Origin: Candidatus Parcubacteria bacterium | Lineage (GTDB): Bacteria > Patescibacteriota > Minisyncoccia > JACPXH01 | Assembly (NCBI GenBank): GCA_016196625.1 | Contig: JACPXH010000017.1 | Span: forward strand, 1 to 52,776 | DNA length: 52,776 bases | Reading direction: 5' to 3' | Shown here: one piece after another, positions 19,603 to 48,295 of the stretch | Position numbering within the stretch: position 1 is the stretch's first letter | Layout of the letters: each line of letters opens with the position of its first letter | Made by a program: the position numbers and the translations under genes | The notes under the pieces: generated by a model | Databases searched by the model: none | What the model was told of the DNA's origin: nothing | Seen by the model: the letters and a program-made list of their open reading frames with translations, nothing else

Positions 19603-20661
19603 ATGCCGCAGCGAAAATACCAAACCGTACTCATCACCGGCGGGTCAGGATTCATCGGCTCAAACTTTGTCCGATACGCCTACCACGCGCACCCGGATTG
19701 GCGTATCGTCAACCTCGACTTGCTGACCTACGCCGGCAATCCGGAAAACCTGCGAGACATCGAAGCGTTCGAGGATGACAAACCCGCCGCTCAACGCCGG
19801 TATACGTTCGTCAGGGGCGACGTGTGTGGCGTGGCGCTTCTCTATGAACTGTTCGGTCAGCATCACTTCGATCTGGTCGTACACTTTGCGGCTGAATCGC
19901 ACGTTGATCGTGCCATCTTCAGCGACGTGGATTTCGTACGTACGAACATCGAGGGTACACGTGCGCTCATCGAGGCCACTCGCAAGAATGGTGGGACTCG
20001 TTTTGTGTATATCTCAACCGATGAGGTGTATGGTTCAATTCCGGACGGTTACGCTACCGAGGATACTCCATTTCGACCTTCCAACCCCTACGCGGCTTCG
20101 AAAGCCGGAGCAGACTTACTCGTGCAGTCCTATATGAAAACGCATAGCCTGCCGGCTGTAATCGTCCGAGGTTCCAACAACTACGGCCCTTACCAGTACC
20201 CTGAAAAGCTGATTCCCATCGCCATCACCAACCTGATCGAGGACAAGAAAATTCCTGTCCACGGCACGGGCGAACAGAGCCGGAGTTGGTTACACGTGGA
20301 CGATTTTTGTCGCGCGGTTGATATCGCTGTTCACGCGGCACTTGACTATGGCATCTACAATGTGGCCGGCGAGGAACGGACAAATCTTGAAGTGCTCGAA
20401 TTGCTCGCCCGCCACCTTGGCAAGAATTTGCGCGACCACCGCGAGCACATCAATGATCGGCCCGGCGGAGATTTTCGGTATGCGTCTGACGCAAGCCGCA
20501 TCGAACAGGAGTTGGGTTGGTCGCGGCGGTATGCCTTCGAAGAGGGTATCCAACAGGTGGTGCGGTGGTACACGGATAACCAACCGTGGTGGCAGCCCAT
20601 CCGGTTGAAAAAGGGATTTGTTGAGCACTATGAGCGTCAGTCCAACGGCCAGTGGTGTTGA
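19603..20661 (+). CDS. rfbB: dTDP-glucose 4,6-dehydratase
   Basis: 352 aa. VLITGGSGFIGSNFVRY; LTYAGNPENL; YISTDEVYG; YAASKAGADLL (YxxxK). Full-length resemblance to RmlB/RfbB. Confidence 0.9.
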   Translation: MPQRKYQTVLITGGSGFIGSNFVRYAYHAHPDWRIVNLDLLTYAGNPENLRDIEAFEDDKPAAQRRYTFVRGDVCGVALLYELFGQHHFDLVVHFAAESHVDRAIFSDVDFVRTNIEGTRALIEATRKNGGTRFVYISTDEVYGSIPDGYATEDTPFRPSNPYAASKAGADLLVQSYMKTHSLPAVIVRGSNNYGPYQYPEKLIPIAITNLIEDKKIPVHGTGEQSRSWLHVDDFCRAVDIAVHAALDYGIYNVAGEERTNLEVLELLARHLGKNLRDHREHINDRPGGDFRYASDASRIEQELGWSRRYAFEEGIQQVVRWYTDNQPWWQPIRLKKGFVEHYERQSNGQWC

Positions 20662-21910
20662 GGCGGGTGCGTGCGTGGCGCGCACAAACTGTCGAATCTG
20701 CGGCAGCCGTCAATTCGAGCCGTTCCTTGATTTGGGCGAGCAACCGCTCGCGAATGCGCTACTCACCCGCGACGCGCTCGACTCCCCCGAGCCTCGATAC
20801 CCGCTTCAGTCGCAGGTATGCACCGATTGCGGCCTCGTGCAACTCCGGCACGTGGTTGACCCGCGGATTCTGTTTGCCGATTATCCCTACTTTTCGTCCG
20901 GCGTGCCAACAGCGGCGCACTTTGCCGATTACGCCCAAGAGCTGGTGAGCCGTTTTCTTCCTGTCCCGGGTGCGTTCGTCTGCGAGATTGCAAGCAACGA
21001 CGGCCACCTGTTGCGTCTTCTCCGGCAAGCTGGTGCGCGCGTACTCGGCGTGGACCCGGCTCGCAACGTTGCCGCCGTTGCCAACAAACGCGGCGTGCCC
21101 ACCATTGTCGATTTCTTCTCCTCCAAACTCGCCGCCGATATCCGGCGCACCCACGGCCCGGCCCAGCTCGTCATCGCTAACAACGTCGTTGCCCACATTG
21201 ACGATCACCGAGACCTTGTACGGGGCATCGCCAATCTGCTGGCCGATGACGGAGTGTTTGTGATGGAAGCGCCACACCTTTCCGATATGTTCGAGCGGCT
21301 TACGTTTGATACCATCTACCATGAGCATCTCTCATCGCTCGCCGTGCGCCCCCTTACGCGGCTCTTCGGTCAATTCGGGTTCGAGATTTTTGACGTGAAG
21401 CTCCTGCCCGTCCAGGGAGTTTCGTTGCGCGCGTACGTCGCGCGCCGTGGTCGTCGCCGCATGCAGCCGGCGGTGTCCGGATGTCTTGCCCGCGAGGCGG
21501 CACTCGGCCTTGACCGGATGACGTCGTACGCCGCTCTTGCCCGGCGCATTGGAGCGCTCAAGGCCGACGTGGTCTCTACCGTCCGACAGCTCAAGGCCCG
21601 CGGCAAACGGATCGCCGGTTACGGCGCAGGTGCGAAGGGGAATACCATTTTGCTCTATTACGGTCTCGGCCGCGACGAGTTTGATTACGCCACGGACGAG
21701 CAGTCTTCCAAGATTGGTAAATTCATGCCGGGCACGCGGCTGCCCATCGTGGACATCGTTTGGTCGCGTCAACATCCGCCGGATTACTATTTTTTGCTTG
21801 CGTGGAACTATAAAGATGTGATTTTGCGCAAAGAACAGGAGTTCGTGGATCGAGGCGGCAAATTCATCATGCCGATCGGTGATGAACGGATTATTCCTAA
21901 AGAAGTCTAA
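20630..21910 (+). CDS. NDP-hexose C-methyltransferase-like enzyme (TylCIII-type: Zn-ribbon + SAM MTase + C-terminal domain)
   Basis: N-terminal four-Cys pattern CRICGS ... CTDCGLVQL. SAM-binding core VCEIASNDGHLL. Long C-terminal domain. Start is uncertain: ATG 20630 overlaps rfbB by 32 nt, and GTG 20675 lies just after the rfbB stop. Confidence 0.7.
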   Translation: MSVSPTASGVEAGACVARTNCRICGSRQFEPFLDLGEQPLANALLTRDALDSPEPRYPLQSQVCTDCGLVQLRHVVDPRILFADYPYFSSGVPTAAHFADYAQELVSRFLPVPGAFVCEIASNDGHLLRLLRQAGARVLGVDPARNVAAVANKRGVPTIVDFFSSKLAADIRRTHGPAQLVIANNVVAHIDDHRDLVRGIANLLADDGVFVMEAPHLSDMFERLTFDTIYHEHLSSLAVRPLTRLFGQFGFEIFDVKLLPVQGVSLRAYVARRGRRRMQPAVSGCLAREAALGLDRMTSYAALARRIGALKADVVSTVRQLKARGKRIAGYGAGAKGNTILLYYGLGRDEFDYATDEQSSKIGKFMPGTRLPIVDIVWSRQHPPDYYFLLAWNYKDVILRKEQEFVDRGGKFIMPIGDERIIPKEV

Positions 21911-21914
21911 CCCC

Positions 21915-22301
21915 ATGTCGATTAAGGTGTTTCGAAATATCTCGCCGGAGTTCGTTGACGAACGGGGTGGCATCACGCGCCTCCTCGACGAGCAAGGCGC
22001 GGCGATCCGGAGCGTCTTATACATTACCTCGAAAGCCGGCACCATCCGTTCGAACCATTACCATAAGCGCGATACCCACTACTGTTATCTGTTGACCGGT
22101 AAAGCCGAGTGGCACGAAAAGCCAGTTGAGGGCGGCGCACACGAAACCGAGGTGCTCGGAGCGGGGGATATGGTCTATACGCCGGCCATGGTCATCCACG
22201 CGGTTAAGTTTCTCGAAGATACGACCTTCCTAGCCTTCGCGACCGAGCCGCGCAACCAAGCAGATTACGAAGCCGACACCGTGCGCGTTCAGCTCATCTA
22301 G
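21915..22301 (+). CDS. Small cupin, WxcM/FdtA-like (sugar ketoisomerase/epimerase-type)
   Basis: 128 aa from ATG 21915. SNHYHKRDTHYCYLLTGKAEW and VIHAVKF form cupin His clusters. Sits inside the deoxysugar cassette. Exact activity is not assignable. Confidence 0.55.
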   Translation: MSIKVFRNISPEFVDERGGITRLLDEQGAAIRSVLYITSKAGTIRSNHYHKRDTHYCYLLTGKAEWHEKPVEGGAHETEVLGAGDMVYTPAMVIHAVKFLEDTTFLAFATEPRNQADYEADTVRVQLI

Positions 22302-22305
22302 GAGT

Positions 22306-23262
22306 ATGGAGCGAGTGCGGTGTGCGGTCATCGGGGTTGGGCACTTCGGTCGGCACTACGTCCGGCTCCTTTCGGATTTCCACGGCTTAGAACTTGCGGC
22401 AGTGGTGAGCCGTTCGGCAGAAACATTAGCTGAACTCCCGAACCTCCCCGTATCGGTACAGCGTACGGCCAATGTGGGTGCCGTGTTTTCCGATTCGGCG
22501 ATTGATGCGGTCATCATTGCAACACCCACGCCGACGCATGCTGCGTTTGCTGCGGCTGCACTCCAGGCCGGCAAACATGTGCTCGTTGAAAAACCCATGA
22601 CCGCGAACCTACGCGAGGCCGAGGAGTTGGCCGAAGCTGTGCGCGTTTCGGGCCGTGTGTTCATGGTCGGGCACCAGTACTTGTACAATGACCACATTAA
22701 GGCGCTCAAGGAGGCGATCAAGGCAGGCGAGCTTGGACGCGTGCGTGCGGTCTTCGCCGAGCACTTCTACCATGGTCCGATCCGGCAGGGAGTTGGATGC
22801 TTTTGGGAGACGGCGGTCCACGAAACCGCTATCCTCGATTACTTGTTTGGGCTTGATGCTGTGACCGACGTGGCAGCTCGGTCGTTCGATCTGACCAGCA
22901 ATGGATTCGACGATTGGACCACGGCTACCATTTCATTCGCTGATGGGCCGACGGCCACGATCATCACCTCGTGGTATGCTCCCGAGAAGGCGCGTCGGCT
23001 CATCGTAGTCGGAGAAGCGGGAAGCGCCAGCTTCGCCGAGGAGCTTACGATTTTCACCGAACCCCCCGGCGCGTTGCGCGATCGGTATGGTCCCGCGCCG
23101 GCAGAGTGCGTGCGCCGACCGGTCGAAGCGGCGCGCGAACCGCTGGTAAGCCAGCTCGAACATTTTCTCACGTGCATCCGCATCGGCGCCGAACCGCGCA
23201 CGGGCATCGAGCACGGGCTGCGGGTCATTCAGCTTCTTGATCGAGTCGAACGTGCTCGGTAG
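22306..23262 (+). CDS. Gfo/Idh/MocA-family NAD(P)-dependent oxidoreductase
   Basis: N-terminal Rossmann VRCAVIGVGHFGRHY. Family motif HVLVEKPMTANLREAEEL. AGGAG lies upstream of ATG 22306. Confidence 0.8.
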   Translation: MERVRCAVIGVGHFGRHYVRLLSDFHGLELAAVVSRSAETLAELPNLPVSVQRTANVGAVFSDSAIDAVIIATPTPTHAAFAAAALQAGKHVLVEKPMTANLREAEELAEAVRVSGRVFMVGHQYLYNDHIKALKEAIKAGELGRVRAVFAEHFYHGPIRQGVGCFWETAVHETAILDYLFGLDAVTDVAARSFDLTSNGFDDWTTATISFADGPTATIITSWYAPEKARRLIVVGEAGSASFAEELTIFTEPPGALRDRYGPAPAECVRRPVEAAREPLVSQLEHFLTCIRIGAEPRTGIEHGLRVIQLLDRVERAR

Positions 23263-40478: not shown

Positions 40479-42104
40479 CTAGTCAACCGGAGCGAGCATT
40501 GGCTCCGGTAGCAAGTCTGAGTTATACACCACTTGGTCGTAGAGGTGGTGACGTGTGGTGGTGCTCAAGGTACGAAGCGTGAGGTCGTCTTGGGCGAAGA
40601 AGCGCTTCGCGAGCTTCTCGCCGCGGGGGAGCTGTGCAAAGTATGGCCATAGCGCCTCGAAGGTTTCGGCTCGATGGGCGCTCAATTCCCCAAGCGCTGC
40701 CCGCAACGCCGCTTTGCGCGTAGTGCGCTCGACGGTTTCCCCAAGTGCGGCCAGATGTTCGATGGTCATCCGTCCGAGGGCAGCGAAGCTGAAGTCGCCC
40801 GTCCGCAGATACCGCTCCGCCAGCTCATCTCCGCGCGGCACATGGCCAAAGAAGTTGAAGAGCGCCTGGAGCACCACGGTTTGATCGCGGTAGCGCTCGT
40901 TCTCTTCGTGGCTGAATGGTCGGCGCGCAGGGTTTGGCTTGGTGGGGTCGGTTTGGTAGCGGTCGTTCCAGTAGAACGTGAGCACGCTCCGATCAAAGAA
41001 GGTCTCGGAGAGGTCGTCGTTATTGCCTCCGTAGTAGCCCCACCGGACCGCAAGCTCTCCCAGCGTAGTGCCGCGGTAAGGGGCGAAGATGGAACTCCAC
41101 GCCATATCGGGCCTGATCGCGACGTTGAGCCGCAGTGTCGCAAGGTTCAAGTCGAGATCGCTCGTCGGGAGCGCCATGATCTGTTCAGTGCGCAGGCGCA
41201 ACCCCGCCGCCTTAATCTTGGCGCATCCCTCGACGATCTCATCGTTCGTCATGCCGTCGCGGTCCAGGATGTGCTTGCGCACCCACGGGTCGGCCGATTC
41301 GATGGCGGTCGTAAGCCCGCAGCAACCTCCTTCCTTGAACAGCTTGAGCCGGCGCGGGTCGCGCGTGAGCTCGAGTCGGATTTGGGCGTGCCACGGAATT
41401 CGAACCCGATCTCGGTACTGGCGGACGAACTCTTCCAGCCAGGGGATGTTGAAGCCGAACACGTCGTCCTGAAAGAAGATGAGACGGGTCGGCCAGCGCC
41501 GGCGGATTTCTTCGAGCTCGGCGATGACGGCTTCAACCGGTCGGGCAACCAACTTGAAGCCGCCATAGAGCTGTAAGAACTGCACGTTGTAGCAGTACGT
41601 GCAGCCCCATGGGCAACCTAGCGCCGTGATCGAGTTTTTGATGGGGTTGTCTCGGTGCCGCGGGTATTCGTCGTAGAAGGTCGCTCGGTCCGGACAGGGG
41701 AATCCCTCCCGAAGGAGTTTCTCGTCGAAGAATACCCCAGTGGATGCCGTCCCTCCCAAGATGTGCCGGAACCCCGTGAACCCCTCCCCCCGGACTACGT
41801 GCCGGGCGTATTGGGCGGCGTCTTCGGCAAAGTAGGTGGCGTGCGGTCCGCCCATGGCCGTCGTAATACCCATGGCGTTGAGGCGCTTCATCGCTTCGTA
41901 GACGGGTTTGTGCGCGCCGCTATAGACGTTGAAGCCAACCAGGTCCGGCCGGAATTCTTCAACGCGTTCAAACAGCGGCCGGAAGTCAAAATCTCTGACC
42001 AGCACGATGCGGGTCTGATGGCCGAGCTTTTTGGCGAGCCCGGCCAGGTAGATGAGTCCTAGGGGTTCGATGATCGAGTAGGCGGCCGCGAGCAATATGC
42101 GCAT
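40479..42104 (-). CDS. B12-binding-domain radical SAM enzyme (class B rSAM)
   Basis: 541 aa. N-terminal Rossmann-like B12-binding-type domain (MRILLAAAYSIIEPLGLIYLAG...DLVGFNVYSG). Radical SAM motif CPWGCTYC (CxxxCxxC). Long C-terminal extension. Confidence 0.8.
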   Translation of the reverse strand: MRILLAAAYSIIEPLGLIYLAGLAKKLGHQTRIVLVRDFDFRPLFERVEEFRPDLVGFNVYSGAHKPVYEAMKRLNAMGITTAMGGPHATYFAEDAAQYARHVVRGEGFTGFRHILGGTASTGVFFDEKLLREGFPCPDRATFYDEYPRHRDNPIKNSITALGCPWGCTYCYNVQFLQLYGGFKLVARPVEAVIAELEEIRRRWPTRLIFFQDDVFGFNIPWLEEFVRQYRDRVRIPWHAQIRLELTRDPRRLKLFKEGGCCGLTTAIESADPWVRKHILDRDGMTNDEIVEGCAKIKAAGLRLRTEQIMALPTSDLDLNLATLRLNVAIRPDMAWSSIFAPYRGTTLGELAVRWGYYGGNNDDLSETFFDRSVLTFYWNDRYQTDPTKPNPARRPFSHEENERYRDQTVVLQALFNFFGHVPRGDELAERYLRTGDFSFAALGRMTIEHLAALGETVERTTRKAALRAALGELSAHRAETFEALWPYFAQLPRGEKLAKRFFAQDDLTLRTLSTTTRHHLYDQVVYNSDLLPEPMLAPVD

Positions 42105-42433
42105 GGCTCCTCCCCCAGAGGCGTTGTGTCAAGGTACCGTTGCTCTCACCATGTCAAGAGCACTCTAATTATAGCGTGTCCAGAGCATCTCTGTTTTCAC
42201 TCTGTGGATAACTTTTGATTCCTGGTGCTACTTTCTTTCGCTGGGCATCTCTACTTTTGTAGGGGCAGATCGCAAACTCTGCCGGGGTTTACCCCGTTGG
42301 AGATTTATATAGTACTGCAATGGGTTACGAACACATCTCGCGTCTTACGTTCATGCCACCAAGATCGTCTCGTTTCCCATCTCTAACGGGGTTTACAGGA
42401 ACTGCGCGGTCTTTTATGATAGGAGGCAATACG

Positions 42434-43801
42434 ATGCGTATTCTCGTGCTCAACCCCGCTATTTACGCGGGCAAAACAAATATCATGACGGTACGCGACC
42501 GTCAGCCGTTGGACATGGCGTATATTGCCGCACTCCTTCGTGCGGATCACGAGGTGCGATTGTTGGACGCGAACATTTTTGGGTACGACGTGGACCGCAC
42601 CCTTGAGGAGATCGAGGCGTTTCGCCCGGATGCTTTCGTGCTTACCTCGACGCCCGTCAACCGATGGGAATGCCCGAATTCGCACATTGATTCGGTGTAT
42701 GAATTGATCAACCGGGCCAGAATTGAAAACACGATTTTGACCGGCTCGCACGGGTCGGTGACGCCCGAGTGGATGCTGCGAAAATGCAACGTGAAGTATG
42801 TGGTTCGTGGGGAACCGGAGATGATCGTGAAAAACCTTGTGGAGACGATTGCCGCGGGCGGCGACCCCAAGACCGTCAAGGGGATTTCGTTTCGAGAAGG
42901 TGAAGGGTTCCGCCACACCGAAGACGCCCCACGCGTGGAAAATCTCGACGCGATGCCAATGCCGGCATACGATCTTTTGCCGATGGAGCGGTACCGCTAC
43001 TCGTTCAGCGATCTCCCGCAACCCTTTTCAATTATGTTGACCAGCCGCGGCTGCCCCTACCACTGCACGTTCTGCCTCAAGGTCATGTCGAAAGACAAAT
43101 TTATTTGGCGTTCGACCAAATCCGTCATTGATGAGATTCAGTATCTGCAGCAGAATTTCGGCGTGCGATCGGTTTACTTTCAAGACTGGGAGTTTGTGAT
43201 CAATAAACCCCGCGTCCACGAACTGTGCGATGCTCTCATTCGTGAGGGGATCAAGGTCCGGTGGGGGTGCAACGTGCGCGCAAACGATTTTTTCTTCAAA
43301 GACCTGATCAAGAAAATGGCGGATGCCGGCTGCGTGCGGGTGAATATCGGGTTTGAGTCCGGCAGCCAGAAGGTTTTGAACTCGATAAAGAAAGCCATTC
43401 GGATTCAGGACTTGGAAACCGCGATCGAATTTACGCGCGCGCTCGGCATTAAACTCGGCATGTACGCCCTAATCAACGCGCCCGGGGAAACGAAAGAGAC
43501 GATTCGCGAGACTATGGCGTTTTTGGCCAAGCACCACATTGACGCGATGAATTTTAACCTTACAATTCCATATCTCGGCACCGAGATGCATGAACGCTTG
43601 AAACAACTCAAGCCGCAGGCCGAAGTCAATTGGGATAATGTGGAAGATTATGCGGGGTTGGTGGACACCGAGCTTTCGCCCGTGGCCGCGCGCTTCTGGC
43701 AGCGGCATGCCAAGTTTCAGATTCGGTTCGGTAAGCTCTATCCGTTGAACCCGGCCTTTTGGCAGCACGCCGTAAAAATGGTGGCGAAACGTTTAGCGTA
43801 G
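42434..43801 (+). CDS. B12-binding-domain radical SAM enzyme (class B rSAM)
   Basis: 455 aa from ATG 42434, with AGGAGG 7 nt upstream. MRILVLNPAIYAG...AFVLTSTP N-terminal domain. CPYHCTFC (CxxxCxxC). GCVRVNIGFESGSQKVL. Confidence 0.8.
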   Translation: MRILVLNPAIYAGKTNIMTVRDRQPLDMAYIAALLRADHEVRLLDANIFGYDVDRTLEEIEAFRPDAFVLTSTPVNRWECPNSHIDSVYELINRARIENTILTGSHGSVTPEWMLRKCNVKYVVRGEPEMIVKNLVETIAAGGDPKTVKGISFREGEGFRHTEDAPRVENLDAMPMPAYDLLPMERYRYSFSDLPQPFSIMLTSRGCPYHCTFCLKVMSKDKFIWRSTKSVIDEIQYLQQNFGVRSVYFQDWEFVINKPRVHELCDALIREGIKVRWGCNVRANDFFFKDLIKKMADAGCVRVNIGFESGSQKVLNSIKKAIRIQDLETAIEFTRALGIKLGMYALINAPGETKETIRETMAFLAKHHIDAMNFNLTIPYLGTEMHERLKQLKPQAEVNWDNVEDYAGLVDTELSPVAARFWQRHAKFQIRFGKLYPLNPAFWQHAVKMVAKRLA

Positions 43802-43885
43802 GATGTGATGCGTTTTCGAATGGAGAGGGCTCGTCGATAGTGTTAGGGTATTATCTTGCTGCCTACTCAACTTCCGCCGTGTCTT

Positions 43886-44779
43886 ATGAGAAAGCAATCG
43901 GTTAGCCGCCGCGGCCCTGCGGCGAATATCGTCGCGCTCGGCGCGGATCATAATGGCGTCAAGCTTAAAACCGAAATCAAAGCGCTCTTAGCGTCACTCG
44001 GTTATCAATGTGTGGACGCGGGATCTTATAGTGAAACCGAGAAGGTTGACTATGCTGATTACGCTCGTACGGTTGGCCAGCTCGTGAATTCTGGTGAGGC
44101 GTCCCGCGGAGTGCTGGTGTGCGGAACCGGAGTGGGCATGAGCATGGTAGCCAACCGGTTCCCGAACGTGCGCGTAGCGCTCGCGCGCAGCCCCGAGGTG
44201 GCACGCAAGGGTCGAGAGCACAACGATGCGAATGTGCTGTGCCTCGGTGCGTGGGTGAATCCCGTGCGGACCAACCTTGCCATCGTGCGGGCGTGGTTTG
44301 GCGAACGCTTCGGCGAAGACCGTCACATCCGGCGCGTGGCCAAGTTCACCGAACCGCGACGCGAGAAAGTGGTGTTCACAAACGGGATTTTCGATCTTTT
44401 GCACTCGGGGCACGTTCACCTCCTGAAGTGCGCGAAAGCTCTGGGCGGCAAACTTATCGTGGGGATCAACTCGGATCGCTCCACGCGCATCCTTAAGGGC
44501 CCAACGCGGCCGGTCTGTGGCGAACAGGATCGCAAGAAGCTCATCGAGTCGCTTGGCTTCGTAGATCAAGCGATCATATTCGATGACACCGCCACCCTTC
44601 CGCTCATCAAACAAATCAAGCCGGATGTGGTGGTCAAAGGCGGGGAGTGGACCGCGGCGGAGGTGCGCCGACGCGATAAGATTCCACCCGAGATCGAGGT
44701 GAGGGTCTTCCCGCTGCTCGCTGGTTACTCAACGACGAACATGGTAAAGACCATCACCGGTCGAAACCGCGCCGCATGA
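43886..44779 (+). CDS. Fusion protein: RpiB/LacAB-type sugar-phosphate isomerase :: HldC/RfaE-domain-II-like nucleotidyltransferase
   Basis: N-terminal half: IVALGADHNGVKLK, VLVCGTGVGMSMVANRF (RpiB Cys motif). C-terminal half: VVFTNGIFDLLHSGHVHLL (HxGH), GINSDRSTRILKGPTRPV, PDVVVKGGEW, as in heptose-1-phosphate adenylyltransferases. TTG 43856 is an alternative start. Confidence 0.75.
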   Translation: MRKQSVSRRGPAANIVALGADHNGVKLKTEIKALLASLGYQCVDAGSYSETEKVDYADYARTVGQLVNSGEASRGVLVCGTGVGMSMVANRFPNVRVALARSPEVARKGREHNDANVLCLGAWVNPVRTNLAIVRAWFGERFGEDRHIRRVAKFTEPRREKVVFTNGIFDLLHSGHVHLLKCAKALGGKLIVGINSDRSTRILKGPTRPVCGEQDRKKLIESLGFVDQAIIFDDTATLPLIKQIKPDVVVKGGEWTAAEVRRRDKIPPEIEVRVFPLLAGYSTTNMVKTITGRNRAA

Positions 44780-45018
44780 ATATCCTGCGCCGGGTCATCG
44801 CCGCGTTCCCGCTTTGAAGCACTGTGCCCAAACGCTGATTGATTTTTACCCAACGCACCAGAAGGCCATCGTCTCCTGCTGGTGGATGAATGGTTGGTGT
44901 GTAGGCCTTCGGTGCGGGGTTCCGCCCCGCCACCGAAATACGAGGTGCCGCCGACTCCCGTCGGCGGGGCTCCACCAAATCGTAGCAAGTACACTTCATT
45001 TTATTTGCAGAAGAGCAA

Positions 45019-45042
45019 CCGCCGCGGCAAACGCCGCGGCGG
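45019..45042 (-). terminator. GC-rich hairpin downstream of the minus-strand Nudix-like gene
   Basis: CCGCCGCGGC-AAAC-GCCGCGGCGG: 10-bp perfect stem, 20 nt beyond stop 45062. On the minus strand it is followed by TTGCTCTTCTGC. Confidence 0.45.
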
Positions 45043-45061
45043 TGGTGCGCCGAGCCGGGTA

Positions 45062-45670
45062 TTAGTCGAAACATCCCACCGGCTCATCTGAAAGAAGGTA
45101 TCGGAGGAACCACTGTTGGAGGCCCCACGCGGCCATGGTCTCGCACGGCATCTTACTGAACTCGCGCACCGGCACGATCAAACGTTTGATTCGTTCTCCC
45201 TCCTTGCGCAGGCCGAACTCCTCTTGACCCTCGGCCACCGCATCCGGTCGTACCTCTGCGTAAGCAAGGTATGTGCGTTCGGTGAGCAGGCCCGGAGATG
45301 CAGCGAGGTGGCGTCGGTCGTTGAGTATCGCAACAAGATCATTATCGCCGATGTGGACCCCGACTTCCTCCCACGCTCCCTCCACAACGTGCTGCCTAAT
45401 GGTGAGGTGCGGTTTATCGAGCCGCTCACCCGGCACGTCGAGCACTGCACCGTCGGGGTGCTCCGGGCTTATCATGGGCGGACGCGGCTGGGTGATAAGG
45501 ACGACGCTCCCGTCGTATCGGTCGAATCGGGTTCTGTGGGGGTAAGGAACTCGCGCATGGGCGGACACACAAATGAGGAACGCAACTGTTGCCTGATTTG
45601 GCGTTCGCACGATCTCGTACCCTCGTTCGTCGCGTTCAACCCTGACATAACCATCATAGACGATTCCCAT
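45062..45670 (-). CDS. Nudix-fold hydrolase-like protein (ADP-ribose/NDP-sugar pyrophosphatase-like, degenerate Nudix box)
   Basis: 202 aa. RBS AAGGAGG 5 nt upstream of the ATG. LDVPGERLDKPHLTIRQHVVEGAWEEVGV resembles G-x5-E-x7-RE-x2-EE-x-G, but the Arg-Glu pair is not conserved. Assignment is tentative. Confidence 0.45.
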   Translation of the reverse strand: MGIVYDGYVRVERDERGYEIVRTPNQATVAFLICVSAHARVPYPHRTRFDRYDGSVVLITQPRPPMISPEHPDGAVLDVPGERLDKPHLTIRQHVVEGAWEEVGVHIGDNDLVAILNDRRHLAASPGLLTERTYLAYAEVRPDAVAEGQEEFGLRKEGERIKRLIVPVREFSKMPCETMAAWGLQQWFLRYLLSDEPVGCFD

Positions 45671-45725
45671 GGCTCCCTCCTTGGGCGTTTGTCTGGCGAA
45701 CTGCCCGGTGGACTCTCCGGATTGC

Positions 45726-45755
45726 CTTATAACATATGCGTTTGTGGCATGTCAA
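45726..45755 (-). promoter_or_regulatory. Near-consensus sigma70 promoter with extended -10 for the Nudix-like gene
   Basis: Minus strand: TTGACA (45755-45750), 18-nt spacer ending in TGT, TATAAG (45731-45726). About 50-nt leader to the AAGGAGG RBS and ATG 45670. Confidence 0.55.
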
Positions 45756-45812
45756 GATCGGTTTTTCGCACCCTTCATTTTATCAATGACTCGTGGTACG
45801 GTACGCTCTGCT

Positions 45813-46961
45813 ATGTTTGAACGGTTGCAGCTTTTTATCTTGACTCTACTCGCGTATCTGCTGCTGCCGTTTTCGCGCGTGCGCAGCCGACCCACGGCCA
45901 AGGGGCGGCCTAGTATCTTAATTGTGCAAACCGGTAAGATCGGGGATCTTGTGTGCACCACCCCCGTCTTCCGGGCAATCAAGAAGACTTGGCCCGAAGC
46001 GGATCTCGGCGTTGCGGTAACGAGTCTCGTAGCTCCCTTACTTGCGGGCAACCCCTACGTTGATGTGGTGTTTGCGCTGAACGGCAAGCCCGGGCTCGCG
46101 GGCAAATTCAGGCTCATCCGCGAGATCCGGCGGCACGGGTACCACTGGGTGCTCGTCCTCACCCCGGCTGCGATCGGCGTCATCATCGGCGTGCTTGCAG
46201 GCATCCCAAATCGGGCGCTCACCGTGATCCCCCAGTTGTCGCGTCACACCCGCTCGGCGCTCATTTTTGCGAACCGTTATGTGCCTTATGAGTTGCGCGC
46301 GGCTGGGGCAGAGCACTACTGTCGGATGGTAAACCTTGTGGGTTCGGTGGACTGTCGTGAGCCGCGGGAGCTCTTTCCCGATGCGGCGGCGCGCGCAAAA
46401 GCCGAGCAGTTTCTCGCCGCGCACGGGATCGGAGCGGATGTGTTCGTCGTTGGCATCTCCGTGGCGGCGGGGAAGTTTAACAAGGAATGGCCAGCCGAAC
46501 GCTTTGGGGCATTGGCAGACCGGTTCATCGAACAGTACGGCGCGAGAATCGTATGGGTTGGATCCAGCGGCGACGCAAGCACCATTGCCGAGGCCGAAGC
46601 GGCCATGCGGCGGCGCGATCGGGCGGTCTCATCCGCCGGCGCCTTCACGCTCGCCGAGCTCTCAGCACTGCTTGGGCGCCTTAAGCTGTTTGTTAGCGTA
46701 GACACGGGTCCTCTCTACATGGCCGATGCGATGGGGGTGCCGGTCGTGGACATTGCGGGGCCGGCTGACGTTCGCTCGCAGGCGCCGGCCGGTCGAGCGC
46801 TCGTGATTCAAGCAGACGGCATCCCGCCACTGCTCACGCTTATGGCTGCACCCGACAGTTCGGAGCGCGACCCGGCCATAATAGCCATTACCGTGGATCA
46901 GGTTTGGCGTGAGATTGAGGCTTTCATCAGTCGTGAGGGGCTTGCCTCCGTGCTTCCATGA
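45813..46961 (+). CDS. GT9-family glycosyltransferase (heptosyltransferase-like)
   Basis: From ATG 45813 (45786 is an alternative): SILIVQTGKIGDLVCTTPVFRAIKKTWPEADLGV, FVVGISVAAGKFNKEWPAERF, LFVSVDTGPLYMADAMGVPVV: characteristic WaaC/WaaF-type blocks. Confidence 0.75.
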   Translation: MFERLQLFILTLLAYLLLPFSRVRSRPTAKGRPSILIVQTGKIGDLVCTTPVFRAIKKTWPEADLGVAVTSLVAPLLAGNPYVDVVFALNGKPGLAGKFRLIREIRRHGYHWVLVLTPAAIGVIIGVLAGIPNRALTVIPQLSRHTRSALIFANRYVPYELRAAGAEHYCRMVNLVGSVDCREPRELFPDAAARAKAEQFLAAHGIGADVFVVGISVAAGKFNKEWPAERFGALADRFIEQYGARIVWVGSSGDASTIAEAEAAMRRRDRAVSSAGAFTLAELSALLGRLKLFVSVDTGPLYMADAMGVPVVDIAGPADVRSQAPAGRALVIQADGIPPLLTLMAAPDSSERDPAIIAITVDQVWREIEAFISREGLASVLP

Positions 46962-48295
46962 CGCATTTGCTTGGCCGCACGCGTGAACGCGCGCAGGAGT
47001 TTTTTCATCATCGGTTCGTGCGCGACACCGCCACACTGCAGGCGGGGACGTTCGTCTCGCTCGGCCTTGGGTTTATTTCTTCGGTTGTCTTCGCGCGGGT
47101 GTTGCAACTGGAGGGGTTCGGCGAGTATGCGCTCATCTCTGCGATCGCGGCGGTGGCTTCGATCCCCCTTGACCTCGGCGTGGGGTACGGGACACTCACA
47201 CTCATGGCCGCGGCGCACGCGCGCGGGGATCGCGCTGAGGTGCGGGACATCATCACGTTTTTCGTCAAGGCAACTGCTTTTATTACCCTTGGGCTTGGCC
47301 TACCGGTCATGATGGGGACTTGGGTGTTTACGGCGACTATCTACCACAGTTCTCGCCTTGGACTCCTTGTTGTTCCACTACTCGCCGTGCAGTTACTGAT
47401 GGCTTTTTTTATTCTCATTACGATTGTCTACCAGGTTGAGCGCCGGTTGAAAGCGCTCGTGCTCATAGAGAATAGTAACCGGGTGCTCAGCATGGTGTTT
47501 CCGGTCACTCTCGTGTTTTTGGGGCAGGGGTTGCCGGGGATCGTCGGCGGACAACTTGCCGCAACGATTATTTCGCTCTTCGCAGCAACGTTTCTCTATC
47601 GCGGCGCTCGCGCATCGGATCCGTTGCTCCCCAGTGCTCGCGAAATTTGTTCACACTTCGGCCGGATGCAACTCGGTCGCTACTTCCGTTTCAGTTTTAA
47701 AATCGCCTTTGACAAGAACGTGGCGAACCTTTTTGCCACGCTGCCAGTCGTGTTCTTGGGGCGTTTGGCGCCGGTGTACCTCGCCGGGTACTACAAGCTT
47801 GCGTTTAACTACCTGCAGGTTCCTTTGCGGCTGACCGGGTCGGTGTCGCGGCTTTTGCAGATTCAGCTGCCGGAGTCGTACGTTACGGGTGCGGATACGC
47901 TCATTAGACATTTCCGGAAGGTAACTATCTATTCGGGGCTGTTGTCGTTTTGCCTGGTGGCGGGTGCGCTCATCTTGGCGGGGCCGATCATCGCGTTGGT
48001 CTATGGGACGGCTTATGGCGCAGCCGCGAAGGTTGTCTATGTACTTGCCCCATTTGCAATCGTTTCTGGTTTTTCCGTGGGCATGGGTCCAGTTTTCCGG
48101 GCCATTGATCGAGTGGGGTCGGTGATTGCCATTAACGTGGCCACTCTTGTTGTTGTGACCCCCATCGGCTATTGGCTCGTGCGCACGTTCCATGTCTACG
48201 GGGCGGCAGCCCTCTTGGGGCTCTATACCGCTCTGGCAACCGGCGCTGCCTTTGCGGTGGTCGGTTACCACTTTAAGCGCCTCACCCGCGCCTGA
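46958..48295 (+). CDS. Wzx-like oligo/polysaccharide flippase (MOP/PST superfamily)
   Basis: 445 aa, about 12-14 hydrophobic segments. N-terminal FVRDTATLQAGTFVSLGLGFISSVVFARVL. ATGA overlap upstream. Confidence 0.65.
   Translation: MTHLLGRTRERAQEFFHHRFVRDTATLQAGTFVSLGLGFISSVVFARVLQLEGFGEYALISAIAAVASIPLDLGVGYGTLTLMAAAHARGDRAEVRDIITFFVKATAFITLGLGLPVMMGTWVFTATIYHSSRLGLLVVPLLAVQLLMAFFILITIVYQVERRLKALVLIENSNRVLSMVFPVTLVFLGQGLPGIVGGQLAATIISLFAATFLYRGARASDPLLPSAREICSHFGRMQLGRYFRFSFKIAFDKNVANLFATLPVVFLGRLAPVYLAGYYKLAFNYLQVPLRLTGSVSRLLQIQLPESYVTGADTLIRHFRKVTIYSGLLSFCLVAGALILAGPIIALVYGTAYGAAAKVVYVLAPFAIVSGFSVGMGPVFRAIDRVGSVIAINVATLVVVTPIGYWLVRTFHVYGAAALLGLYTALATGAAFAVVGYHFKRLTRA

Follow-up and report, generated by a model that had tools for sequence, protein, structure and literature searches.

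Bacteria use ADP-heptose-type sugars to build their surfaces, and to our knowledge all described routes to them start with the SIS-fold isomerase GmhA. The nucleotidyltransferases (NTs) that activate these sugars have been divided by Tang et al. (Science 2024) into three HENase classes, NT alone, kinase/NT and isomerase/kinase/NT, as set out in two commentaries (PMC11461863, PMC11573728), where ADP-heptose-type sugars are also described as innate-immune agonists. ADP-heptose genes have been annotated in Paceibacteria in one paper. Here we analyze a gene of Candidatus Parcubacteria bacterium (assembly GCA_016196625.1) that joins an RpiB/LacAB-type isomerase domain to an NT domain resembling HldC, or RfaE domain II (hereafter the fusion). 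It lies on contig JACPXH010000017.1, the entire 52.8 kb of which (52,776 nucleotides) form the window; the genome amounts to 818 kb and is 94% complete.

With HldC/RfaE domain II the fused NT shares the fold, the HxGH and (F/L)XXGXSTT motifs and its companions, i.e., an HldA-like kinase, a GT9-family glycosyltransferase and, in relatives, a HAD phosphatase; its best NCBIfam and PDB matches are of this type. It differs in scoring below the family cut-off and in being joined to an RpiB-fold isomerase rather than to a kinase. The genomic setting departs from the HldC route as well, in that GmhA was not found in this genome and that a gene cassette around the fusion in relatives also encodes a transaldolase, a cupin and an AraD-like epimerase. 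Judged from these comparisons, the NT half very likely catalyzes the final step in a heptose-type NDP-sugar route serving the neighboring GT9. More tentatively, we propose that the fusion is a two-domain enzyme of a GmhA-free, ADP-heptose-type NDP-sugar route in which the RpiB domain would be the pathway isomerase, a reading to which we give considerable but not predominant weight.

Domains, reading frame and relatives of the fusion

The initial annotation had described one open reading frame (ORF) joining an RpiB/LacAB domain to a cytidylyltransferase-fold domain, and our analysis bears this out (Table 1). Translation of positions 43886-44776 yields 297 residues with zero internal stops, and an upstream TTG at 43856 offers an alternative start. 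The motifs quoted for the two halves are in place, with GADHNG at residues 19-24 and CGTGVGMS at 79-86 in the RpiB half, and FDLLHSGH (169-176), LKGPTRPV (203-210) and VVKGGEW (249-255) in the NT half. The Pfam match to LacAB_rpiB covers profile positions 1-137 of 138, and CTP_transf_like (PF01467) is matched at residues 165-257 (E 5e-16). In NCBIfam, both halves score 142.4 bits: for rpiB (TIGR01120) this is narrowly above the cut-off of 138.65, whereas for rfaE_dom_II (TIGR02199) it is under the equivalog cut-off of 181.5, yet ~90 bits ahead of TagD (TIGR01518, 49.5 bits). A PDB sequence search matched the RpiB half to the RpiB structures 3he8 and 1nn4. The top match of the NT half was 5x9q (91 bits), which is labeled 'putative cytidylyltransferase', which we take to be Burkholderia HldC, and which outranked ethanolamine-phosphate cytidylyltransferase and TagD (1coz, 46 bits).

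The frame across the domain junction is secure. One Logan contig, assembled from a second groundwater sample, spans 43800-44590 and a contig from the probable source sample spans 44035-44850, each with zero differences and zero indels; both are assembled contigs rather than raw reads. Database homologues lend further support to the frame and show that the fusion is far from singular: the best 120 database homologues (55-88% identical) all contain both Pfam domains with an equal linker length, and a junction-centered search added 25 fused clusters, so that ~145 database proteins share the RpiB-NT architecture, which is a lower bound. Catalytic positions of both domains are invariant in 24 of 24 aligned members, which also speaks for an intact frame. 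The nearest named homologues are labeled Parcubacteria, Kaiserbacteria, Doudnabacteria and Staskawiczbacteria, and the sequencing runs that contain the fusion locus are groundwater metagenomes. Public annotations of homologues read 'ribose 5-phosphate isomerase B', 'rfaE ... nucleotidyltransferase domain', 'FAD synthase' or 'hypothetical'. TagD-type and FAD-synthase identities were considered for the NT domain and rejected, as these models score 49.5 and 16.4 bits against 142 for rfaE_dom_II; 'FAD synthase' is the label of one homologue in one source.

In the NT half, the HxGH motif is represented by LHSGH at residues 172-176, with H173, G175 and H176 invariant in the 24 aligned members. The C-terminal LLAGYSTT (residues 277-284) fits the (F/L)XXGXSTT motif of heptose nucleotidyltransferases (PMC11573728); some members of the fusion family have an insertion before YSTT. 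The fusion therefore shares with the classes of Tang et al. the nucleotidyltransferase family and the diagnostic C-terminal motif. It differs in that an RpiB/NT didomain is not among the three classes given in the commentaries, and in that the fifth motif residue is Tyr in place of the Arg (STTR5) which, according to one of them (PMC11573728), marks NTP-promiscuous enzymes.

NT domains that are 43-50% identical to that of the fusion occur in standalone, kinase-NT (HldE-type), NT-SIS_2, short-chain dehydrogenase-NT, RpiB-NT-NT and NT-RpiB-NT proteins. In a FastTree phylogeny of 123 NT domains, whose support values were not inspected, the RpiB-linked domains including the fusion form one monophyletic clade, which is sister to short kinase-NT (HldE-type) proteins, with the NT-SIS group nearby and the HldC of canonical Patescibacteria clusters at a distance. 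By scores, PDB matches and tree alike, the second domain groups with HldC/HldE and not with TagD, in agreement with its initial assignment. The placement of the RpiB-NT clade next to kinase-NT and near NT-GmhA proteins also indicates that isomerase plus NT is a recurrent design.

These NT-GmhA didomain proteins (CTP_transf_like plus SIS_2) were seen in six metagenome loci (L133, L141, L148, L160, L163 and L183) and in proteins P0158 and P0159, and measure 332-342 amino acids (291 in P0159). Like the fusion, they place the first and the last activity of a heptose-type route in one protein; they differ in that the isomerase has the SIS fold and is C-terminal to the NT, while that of the fusion has the RpiB fold and is N-terminal. 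NT-GmhA is thus another first-plus-last fusion, and it too is missing from the class list in the commentaries. The initial annotation had pointed to an isomerase fused directly to the last enzyme; joining first and last enzyme in this way is not unique, since NT-GmhA proteins are among the closest NT relatives.

Other architectures were noted alongside. A short-chain dehydrogenase-NT form (L130:194-1333; P0147, P0151) nests inside the RpiB-NT clade, which indicates that the N-terminal partner of this NT lineage is exchangeable. Two NT domains are found in P0006 and P0008 (RpiB-NT-NT) and in P0009 (NT-RpiB-NT), where the extra N-terminal NT carries FLEGRSTT, the STTR5 motif of NTP-promiscuous enzymes, and in L119 a second, standalone NT gene lies within the cassette. 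Judged from these arrangements, some lineages may use two nucleotidyl transfers, or two nucleotides. P0121 (171 amino acids, from an 84-kb Parcubacteria contig), annotated as NT only, is 81% identical over 171 amino acids, and its N-terminus lies inside the last RpiB helix (MNPVRKNLAVVRAWFGE...); this reflects a gene-calling artefact or else an RpiB half that has been frameshifted or truncated.

The RpiB half is a full-length domain of the RpiB/LacAB family, which includes ribose-5-phosphate isomerase B and the allose-6-phosphate, galactose-6-phosphate and erythrulose-4-phosphate isomerases. D21-H22, C79, T81 and H112-N113 align with the catalytic residues of E. coli and C. thermocellum RpiB, and the phosphate-binding R146, H147 and R150 are retained. 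RpiB has three phosphate-stabilizing arginines, Arg113, Arg137 and Arg141 in T. cruzi numbering (PMC4882579), two of which are kept here. The equivalent of Arg113 is W123 in 116 of 116 fused members, compared with Arg in 62 of 84 standalone RpiBs, which suggests that the substrate of the fused domain may have changed. Nine positions (N23, V25, P47, K53, K108, W123, N130, G143 and E144) are specific to the fused form, i.e., conserved in at least 90% of the 116 fused members with a residue found in less than 15% of the 84 standalone RpiBs. N23, V25, K53 and K108 are present in at least 94% of the fused members, and N23 and W123 in all of them; at the P47 position this fusion protein has serine. 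Besides these residues and its covalent link to an NT, the fused domain differs from other family members in being a second copy. A standalone RpiB in this genome adjoins Rpe (ribulose-phosphate 3-epimerase) and GAPDH, and a standalone RpiB is also carried by the congener G301, which has the fusion as well. Judged from its neighborhood, the copy beside Rpe is likelier than the fused domain to be the housekeeping enzyme for ribulose-5-phosphate and ribose-5-phosphate.

Distribution, cassette context and the orphan locus

The fused form was found in none of 300 other species-representative genomes of the phylum (a tally that takes in one unpublished genome, G154, on which no individual statement depends), where only standalone RpiBs of 33-45% identity were detected, and among 40 closer relatives it is restricted to the same-genus G301 (79% identity). 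The fusion is therefore an accessory and not a housekeeping gene; a family-wide housekeeping-RpiB role was rejected on this distribution and because both fusion genomes have another RpiB. Further fused loci come from genome contigs, metagenome contigs and IMG/VR viral contigs, those from metagenomes and viruses being reached by a query built from C-terminal halves, as single-domain RpiBs dominate full-length matches. Full-length fused matches are present in IMG/VR viral contigs, and none was found in GenBank phage records. Among the matches listed, only L008 and L009 derive from contigs of species-representative genomes; L008 belongs to a metagenome-assembled genome (MAG) labeled Woesearchaeota (DPANN) and L009 is a 3.5-kb contig of a MAG labeled Acidobacteria, so that either the cassette crosses domains or these contigs are mis-binned.

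Clustering of the genes neighboring the fusion was used to describe the cassette in 17 other loci with enough flank, eight of which are viral. A cupin and a transaldolase gene lie downstream of the fusion in 17 of 17 loci long enough, and an HldA-like kinase follows at most two genes after it in all 11 non-viral loci with downstream sequence and in all eight viral ones. This kinase belongs to the PfkB family, with rfaE_dom_I as best NCBIfam model (163-175 bits, compared with 56-72 for ribokinase), the transaldolase is small and of the transaldolase/Fsa type, and the cupin, single or double, has a weak match to type II phosphomannose isomerase (PMI; PF01050). Most cassettes also contain an AraD-like gene of the class II aldolase fold, which scores above the cut-off of the AraD L-ribulose-5-phosphate 4-epimerase subfamily (266.7 versus 257), and a HAD phosphatase of 103-120 amino acids with a DIDGT motif, which is fused to the cupin in G301 and has a Cof-type HAD in its place in L008. 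No SIS/GmhA gene was seen in the flanks of any collected fused locus. B12-binding radical SAM and GT2/GT4 glycosyltransferase genes lie upstream in two fused loci and a GT9 gene lies beside the cassette in L120, and this embedding in glycan loci argues against a catabolic role. RpiB and transaldolase co-occur in every cassette long enough to show both. In at least seven loci the cupin is found beside a kinase and an NT without RpiB, transaldolase or GmhA; since it is also constant in the cassettes, the cupin is at least as good a candidate for a GmhA substitute in the relatives. Canonical GmhA-HldA-x-HldC clusters with GT9 genes, three of which come after one such cluster, exist in other Patescibacteria, which indicates that heptose-type glycans are used in the phylum, and GmhA-like genes occur in 31 of 301 sampled genomes.

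The fusion of the window belongs to the clade by sequence, but its gene context does not match: no cassette genes follow it in the window, and no cassette remnant was found downstream. Genome-wide tblastn searches and profile HMMs built from 14-19 cassette proteins likewise detected no cassette-family cupin, transaldolase, AraD-like gene or small HAD. Here the fusion is thus an orphan of a conserved cassette. Nucleotide homology to the G301 locus (75.5%) ends exactly at the ORF borders, and the G301 cassette sits inserted in a backbone sharing synteny with a different contig (C14) of this genome.

Table 1. Features around the fusion gene in the window
Feature	Position	Strand	Evidence and remarks
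Second B12-binding radical SAM enzyme	40479..42104	-	PF02310, PF04055; divergent from first
B12-binding radical SAM enzyme	42320..43801	+	PF04055, PF02310; directly upstream of fusion, co-directional
RpiB-HldC fusion gene	43886..44779	+	297 aa plus stop; open frame, two Pfam domains
RpiB/LacAB-type aldose-ketose isomerase domain	43931..44344	+	residues 16-153; PF02502, E 5e-46
HldC/RfaE-domain-II-like nucleotidyltransferase domain	44354..44755	+	residues 157-290; TIGR02199
Nudix-like ORF, 202 aa	45062..45670	-	convergent with fusion; ESM Atlas similarity
GT9-family glycosyltransferase	45669..46961	+	PF01075, E 3e-17
Polysaccharide flippase-type membrane protein	46958..48295	+	PF01943, PF13440

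The window as a whole is one long surface-glycan locus, with a dTDP-glucose dehydratase, several GT2/GT4 enzymes, an ArnC-like polyprenyl-phosphate transferase, methyltransferases, two B12-binding radical SAM enzymes, a GT9, a flippase and large membrane proteins; the flippase indicates that a surface glycan is built. The radical SAM gene directly upstream of the fusion falls into the same blast cluster as L122:2864-4348 and L124:7130-8608, which are located two genes upstream of the fusion in their loci. The GT9, the only one in this genome (G301 also has one), starts 890 bp downstream of the fusion. Its best NCBIfam models are heptosyltransferases III and II, with 94.7 and 90.8 bits, under their cut-offs. 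As called, the GT9 and Nudix-like ORFs overlap head-to-head by 2 nt. Because family matches of the GT9 begin only at residue ~82, with a hydrophobic stretch after an internal Met near residue 49, its true start probably lies downstream by another ~120-145 nt, with room then for a short divergent control region. The Nudix-like ORF has zero Pfam or NCBIfam matches; in the ESM Atlas it is nearest to NUDIX clusters (score 0.95, 170 shared features), a language-model similarity that serves as a lead only. A consensus scan of 43600-45200 for promoters and terminators found nothing.

A separate deoxysugar module occupies 19603-23262 and comprises a dTDP-glucose 4,6-dehydratase (401 bits, above cut-off), a 430-aa ORF (20618-21910) read by eye only as a putative C-methyltransferase, a 140-aa cupin of the ketoisomerase type (21879-22301) and a Gfo/Idh/MocA oxidoreductase. 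This cupin was considered as a counterpart of the cassette cupin and rejected, as its match to the cassette cupin profile, the sole one obtained, is weak (21 bits) and it belongs to the deoxysugar module.

Some partner genes were found elsewhere in the genome. The initial annotation had pointed out that in the canonical route a kinase and a phosphatase act between isomerization and nucleotidylation. A near-canonical HldA-like kinase is present on another contig, unlinked to the fusion (G000:C16:36208-37125, locus L003:1471-2445; TIGR02198, 326.6 bits, cut-off 345), whereas neither TIGR01656 for GmhB-type HAD-IIIA phosphatases nor the small-HAD profile of the cassette gave a match genome-wide. 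The kinase gene is flanked by tsaD and a YedY/MsrP-like gene, well away from any glycan locus. G301 lacks this kinase and has the cassette kinase only, so that each genome contains exactly one HldA-like kinase. A transketolase is present, and sedoheptulose-7-phosphate can thus be made. Searches with tblastn and profile HMMs found no transaldolase in this genome, and the only full transaldolase of G301 is the cassette copy. GmhA was not found in either fusion genome: in this one, at 94% completeness, the best TIGR00441 match reaches 18.6 bits and falls in a 339-aa bifunctional phosphoglucose/phosphomannose isomerase (PGI/PMI), which is its sole SIS protein, and the SIS_2 model scores 23.4 bits here and 16.3 in G301.

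A candidate GmhA-free route and its alternatives

In the route that we propose, transketolase would supply sedoheptulose-7-phosphate from the pentose-phosphate pathway, which the RpiB domain, as a specialized aldose-ketose isomerase, would convert to an aldoheptose-7-phosphate. The HldA-like kinase on C16 would then form the 1,7-bisphosphate, and a phosphatase, for which the two profiles found no candidate in this genome, would release heptose-1-phosphate. The NT domain would join this to an NTP, probably ATP, to give an NDP-heptose, and the GT9 would add the activated sugar to the surface glycan. Direct analysis shows what the two domains are, that their catalytic residues are intact and selection on them is purifying, with which clade and cassette they belong, and which partner genes are there or missing; all substrates, the nucleotide and the role of the RpiB domain as committed isomerase are what we infer. 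This assignment is favored by the NT-GmhA fusions, which set a precedent for a fused partner that is the pathway isomerase, and by the conserved residues that the RpiB domain has of its own near the active site. It is further favored by the separate housekeeping RpiB and by a genome that has the fusion, a kinase and a GT9 but neither the cupin nor GmhA.

Several observations weigh against this reading. The TIGR02199 and TIGR02198 scores are both under the curated cut-offs, so that the sugar need not be D-glycero-D-manno-heptose. The constancy of the cassette cupin and its occurrence beside kinase and NT without RpiB raise the possibility that the cupin is the true replacement for GmhA, RpiB and transaldolase then providing the precursor, and the co-variation of these two is what a precursor-supply module would show. 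As 12 of 26 standalone RpiBs of the candidate phyla radiation (CPR) also lack the Arg113-type residue, the Arg-to-Trp exchange is weaker evidence for a changed substrate. The phosphatase was not found, although, as with the other absences, the genome is 94% complete. The pairwise dN/dS values relative to G301 (0.085 and 0.054 for the RpiB and NT halves, respectively, and about 0.08 for the whole gene) average both lineages and involve a saturated dS. By these values, and with only four of 93 conserved columns deviating, within the range of the family, both domains are under purifying selection and the gene does not look to be decaying.

It is conceivable, though we rather doubt it, that the RpiB domain only interconverts ribulose-5-phosphate and ribose-5-phosphate, or a close analogue. 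With the transaldolase it would feed sedoheptulose-7-phosphate, or octulose-8-phosphate formed from ribose-5-phosphate, while the PMI-like cupin would be the committed isomerase; in this genome the RpiB domain would then be a largely redundant passenger, and isomerization would fall to the SIS-type PGI/PMI or to no enzyme. Besides the strict pairing of RpiB with transaldolase, where cupin, kinase and NT also occur without the two, such a role would fit the weak PF01050/PMI match of the cupin, an RpiB domain that is above the rpiB equivalog cut-off with all catalytic residues kept, a congener whose only full transaldolase is in the cassette, and the presence of PGI/PMI in this genome. It is harder to reconcile with the housekeeping RpiB that both fusion genomes already have beside Rpe, with the family-specific residues near the active site, with a purifying selection on the RpiB half about equal to that on the NT half, and with the NT-GmhA fusions, in which the fused partner would be the pathway isomerase. 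We therefore retain the committed isomerase step as the preferred, if tentative, role of the RpiB domain.

Less probable still is that the cassette has been lost or broken up here and the pathway has stopped, the fusion being kept for another or partial function or not yet having decayed. The missing cupin, transaldolase, AraD-like gene and small HAD, the homology to G301 that stops at the gene borders, and the insertion of the G301 cassette into a backbone shared with this genome would all agree with such a relic. The gene itself speaks against decay, as its frame is intact, all invariant residues of the 24-member alignment are kept, few conserved columns deviate and dN/dS is low; moreover, it lies in an intact glycan locus, adjoining a GT9, and its kinase partner is in the genome. 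We consider it very improbable that the NT nucleotidylates the terminal phosphate of the RpiB product, e.g., ribose-5-phosphate to an ADP- or CDP-ribose-like compound, so that the pathway could do without a kinase or phosphatase acting between the domains. Most enzymes of this NT fold (TagD, CCT, NMNAT) act on terminal phosphates, and fused activities could well be consecutive. The NT score is under the HldC equivalog cut-off, and the short-chain dehydrogenase-NT variant of the same clade recalls enzymes that combine a reductase with a cytidylyltransferase, such as CDP-ribitol synthase. Yet the NT resembles HldC much more than TagD or other terminal-phosphate enzymes, nearly all loci pair the fusion with an HldA-like kinase of the anomeric type and a phosphatase, and a GT9 adjoins it here.

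The sugar may be a heptose, an octose or another; by our own reasoning from the AraD-like epimerase and the stereochemistry of known RpiB/LacAB reactions, it may also have a non-manno configuration. A more far-reaching version of the proposal, which we regard as speculative and unlikely as a whole, would have the RpiB domain as a non-homologous replacement of GmhA acting on sedoheptulose-7-phosphate or octulose-8-phosphate, with a gluco- or galacto- rather than manno-configured product; the fusion would then represent a fourth class of heptose nucleotidyltransferases and make a new NDP-heptose or NDP-octose. The argument for the gluco- or galacto-configuration is our own and follows from the C2 stereochemistry of known RpiB/LacAB reactions.

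The initial annotation had not recognized the architecture as a described one, and a full-text literature search indeed retrieved no description of an RpiB-NT fusion or of its cassette. At least ~145 proteins join an isomerase fold other than that of GmhA to an activating enzyme, in a conserved, GmhA-free cassette, and they occur in ultra-small groundwater bacteria, in MAGs labeled archaeal and in viral contigs. The family suggests that an activated sugar of seven or eight carbons is made by a route not yet described, and this window adds the orphan configuration of the fusion. As the genome keeps only the fusion, the kinase and the GT9, it provides a useful natural case for the question whether the RpiB domain alone starts the pathway. 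Were the far-reaching version above true, the new NDP-heptose or NDP-octose would occur at the surface of both CPR bacteria and DPANN archaea, as well as in cells infected by cassette-carrying phages.

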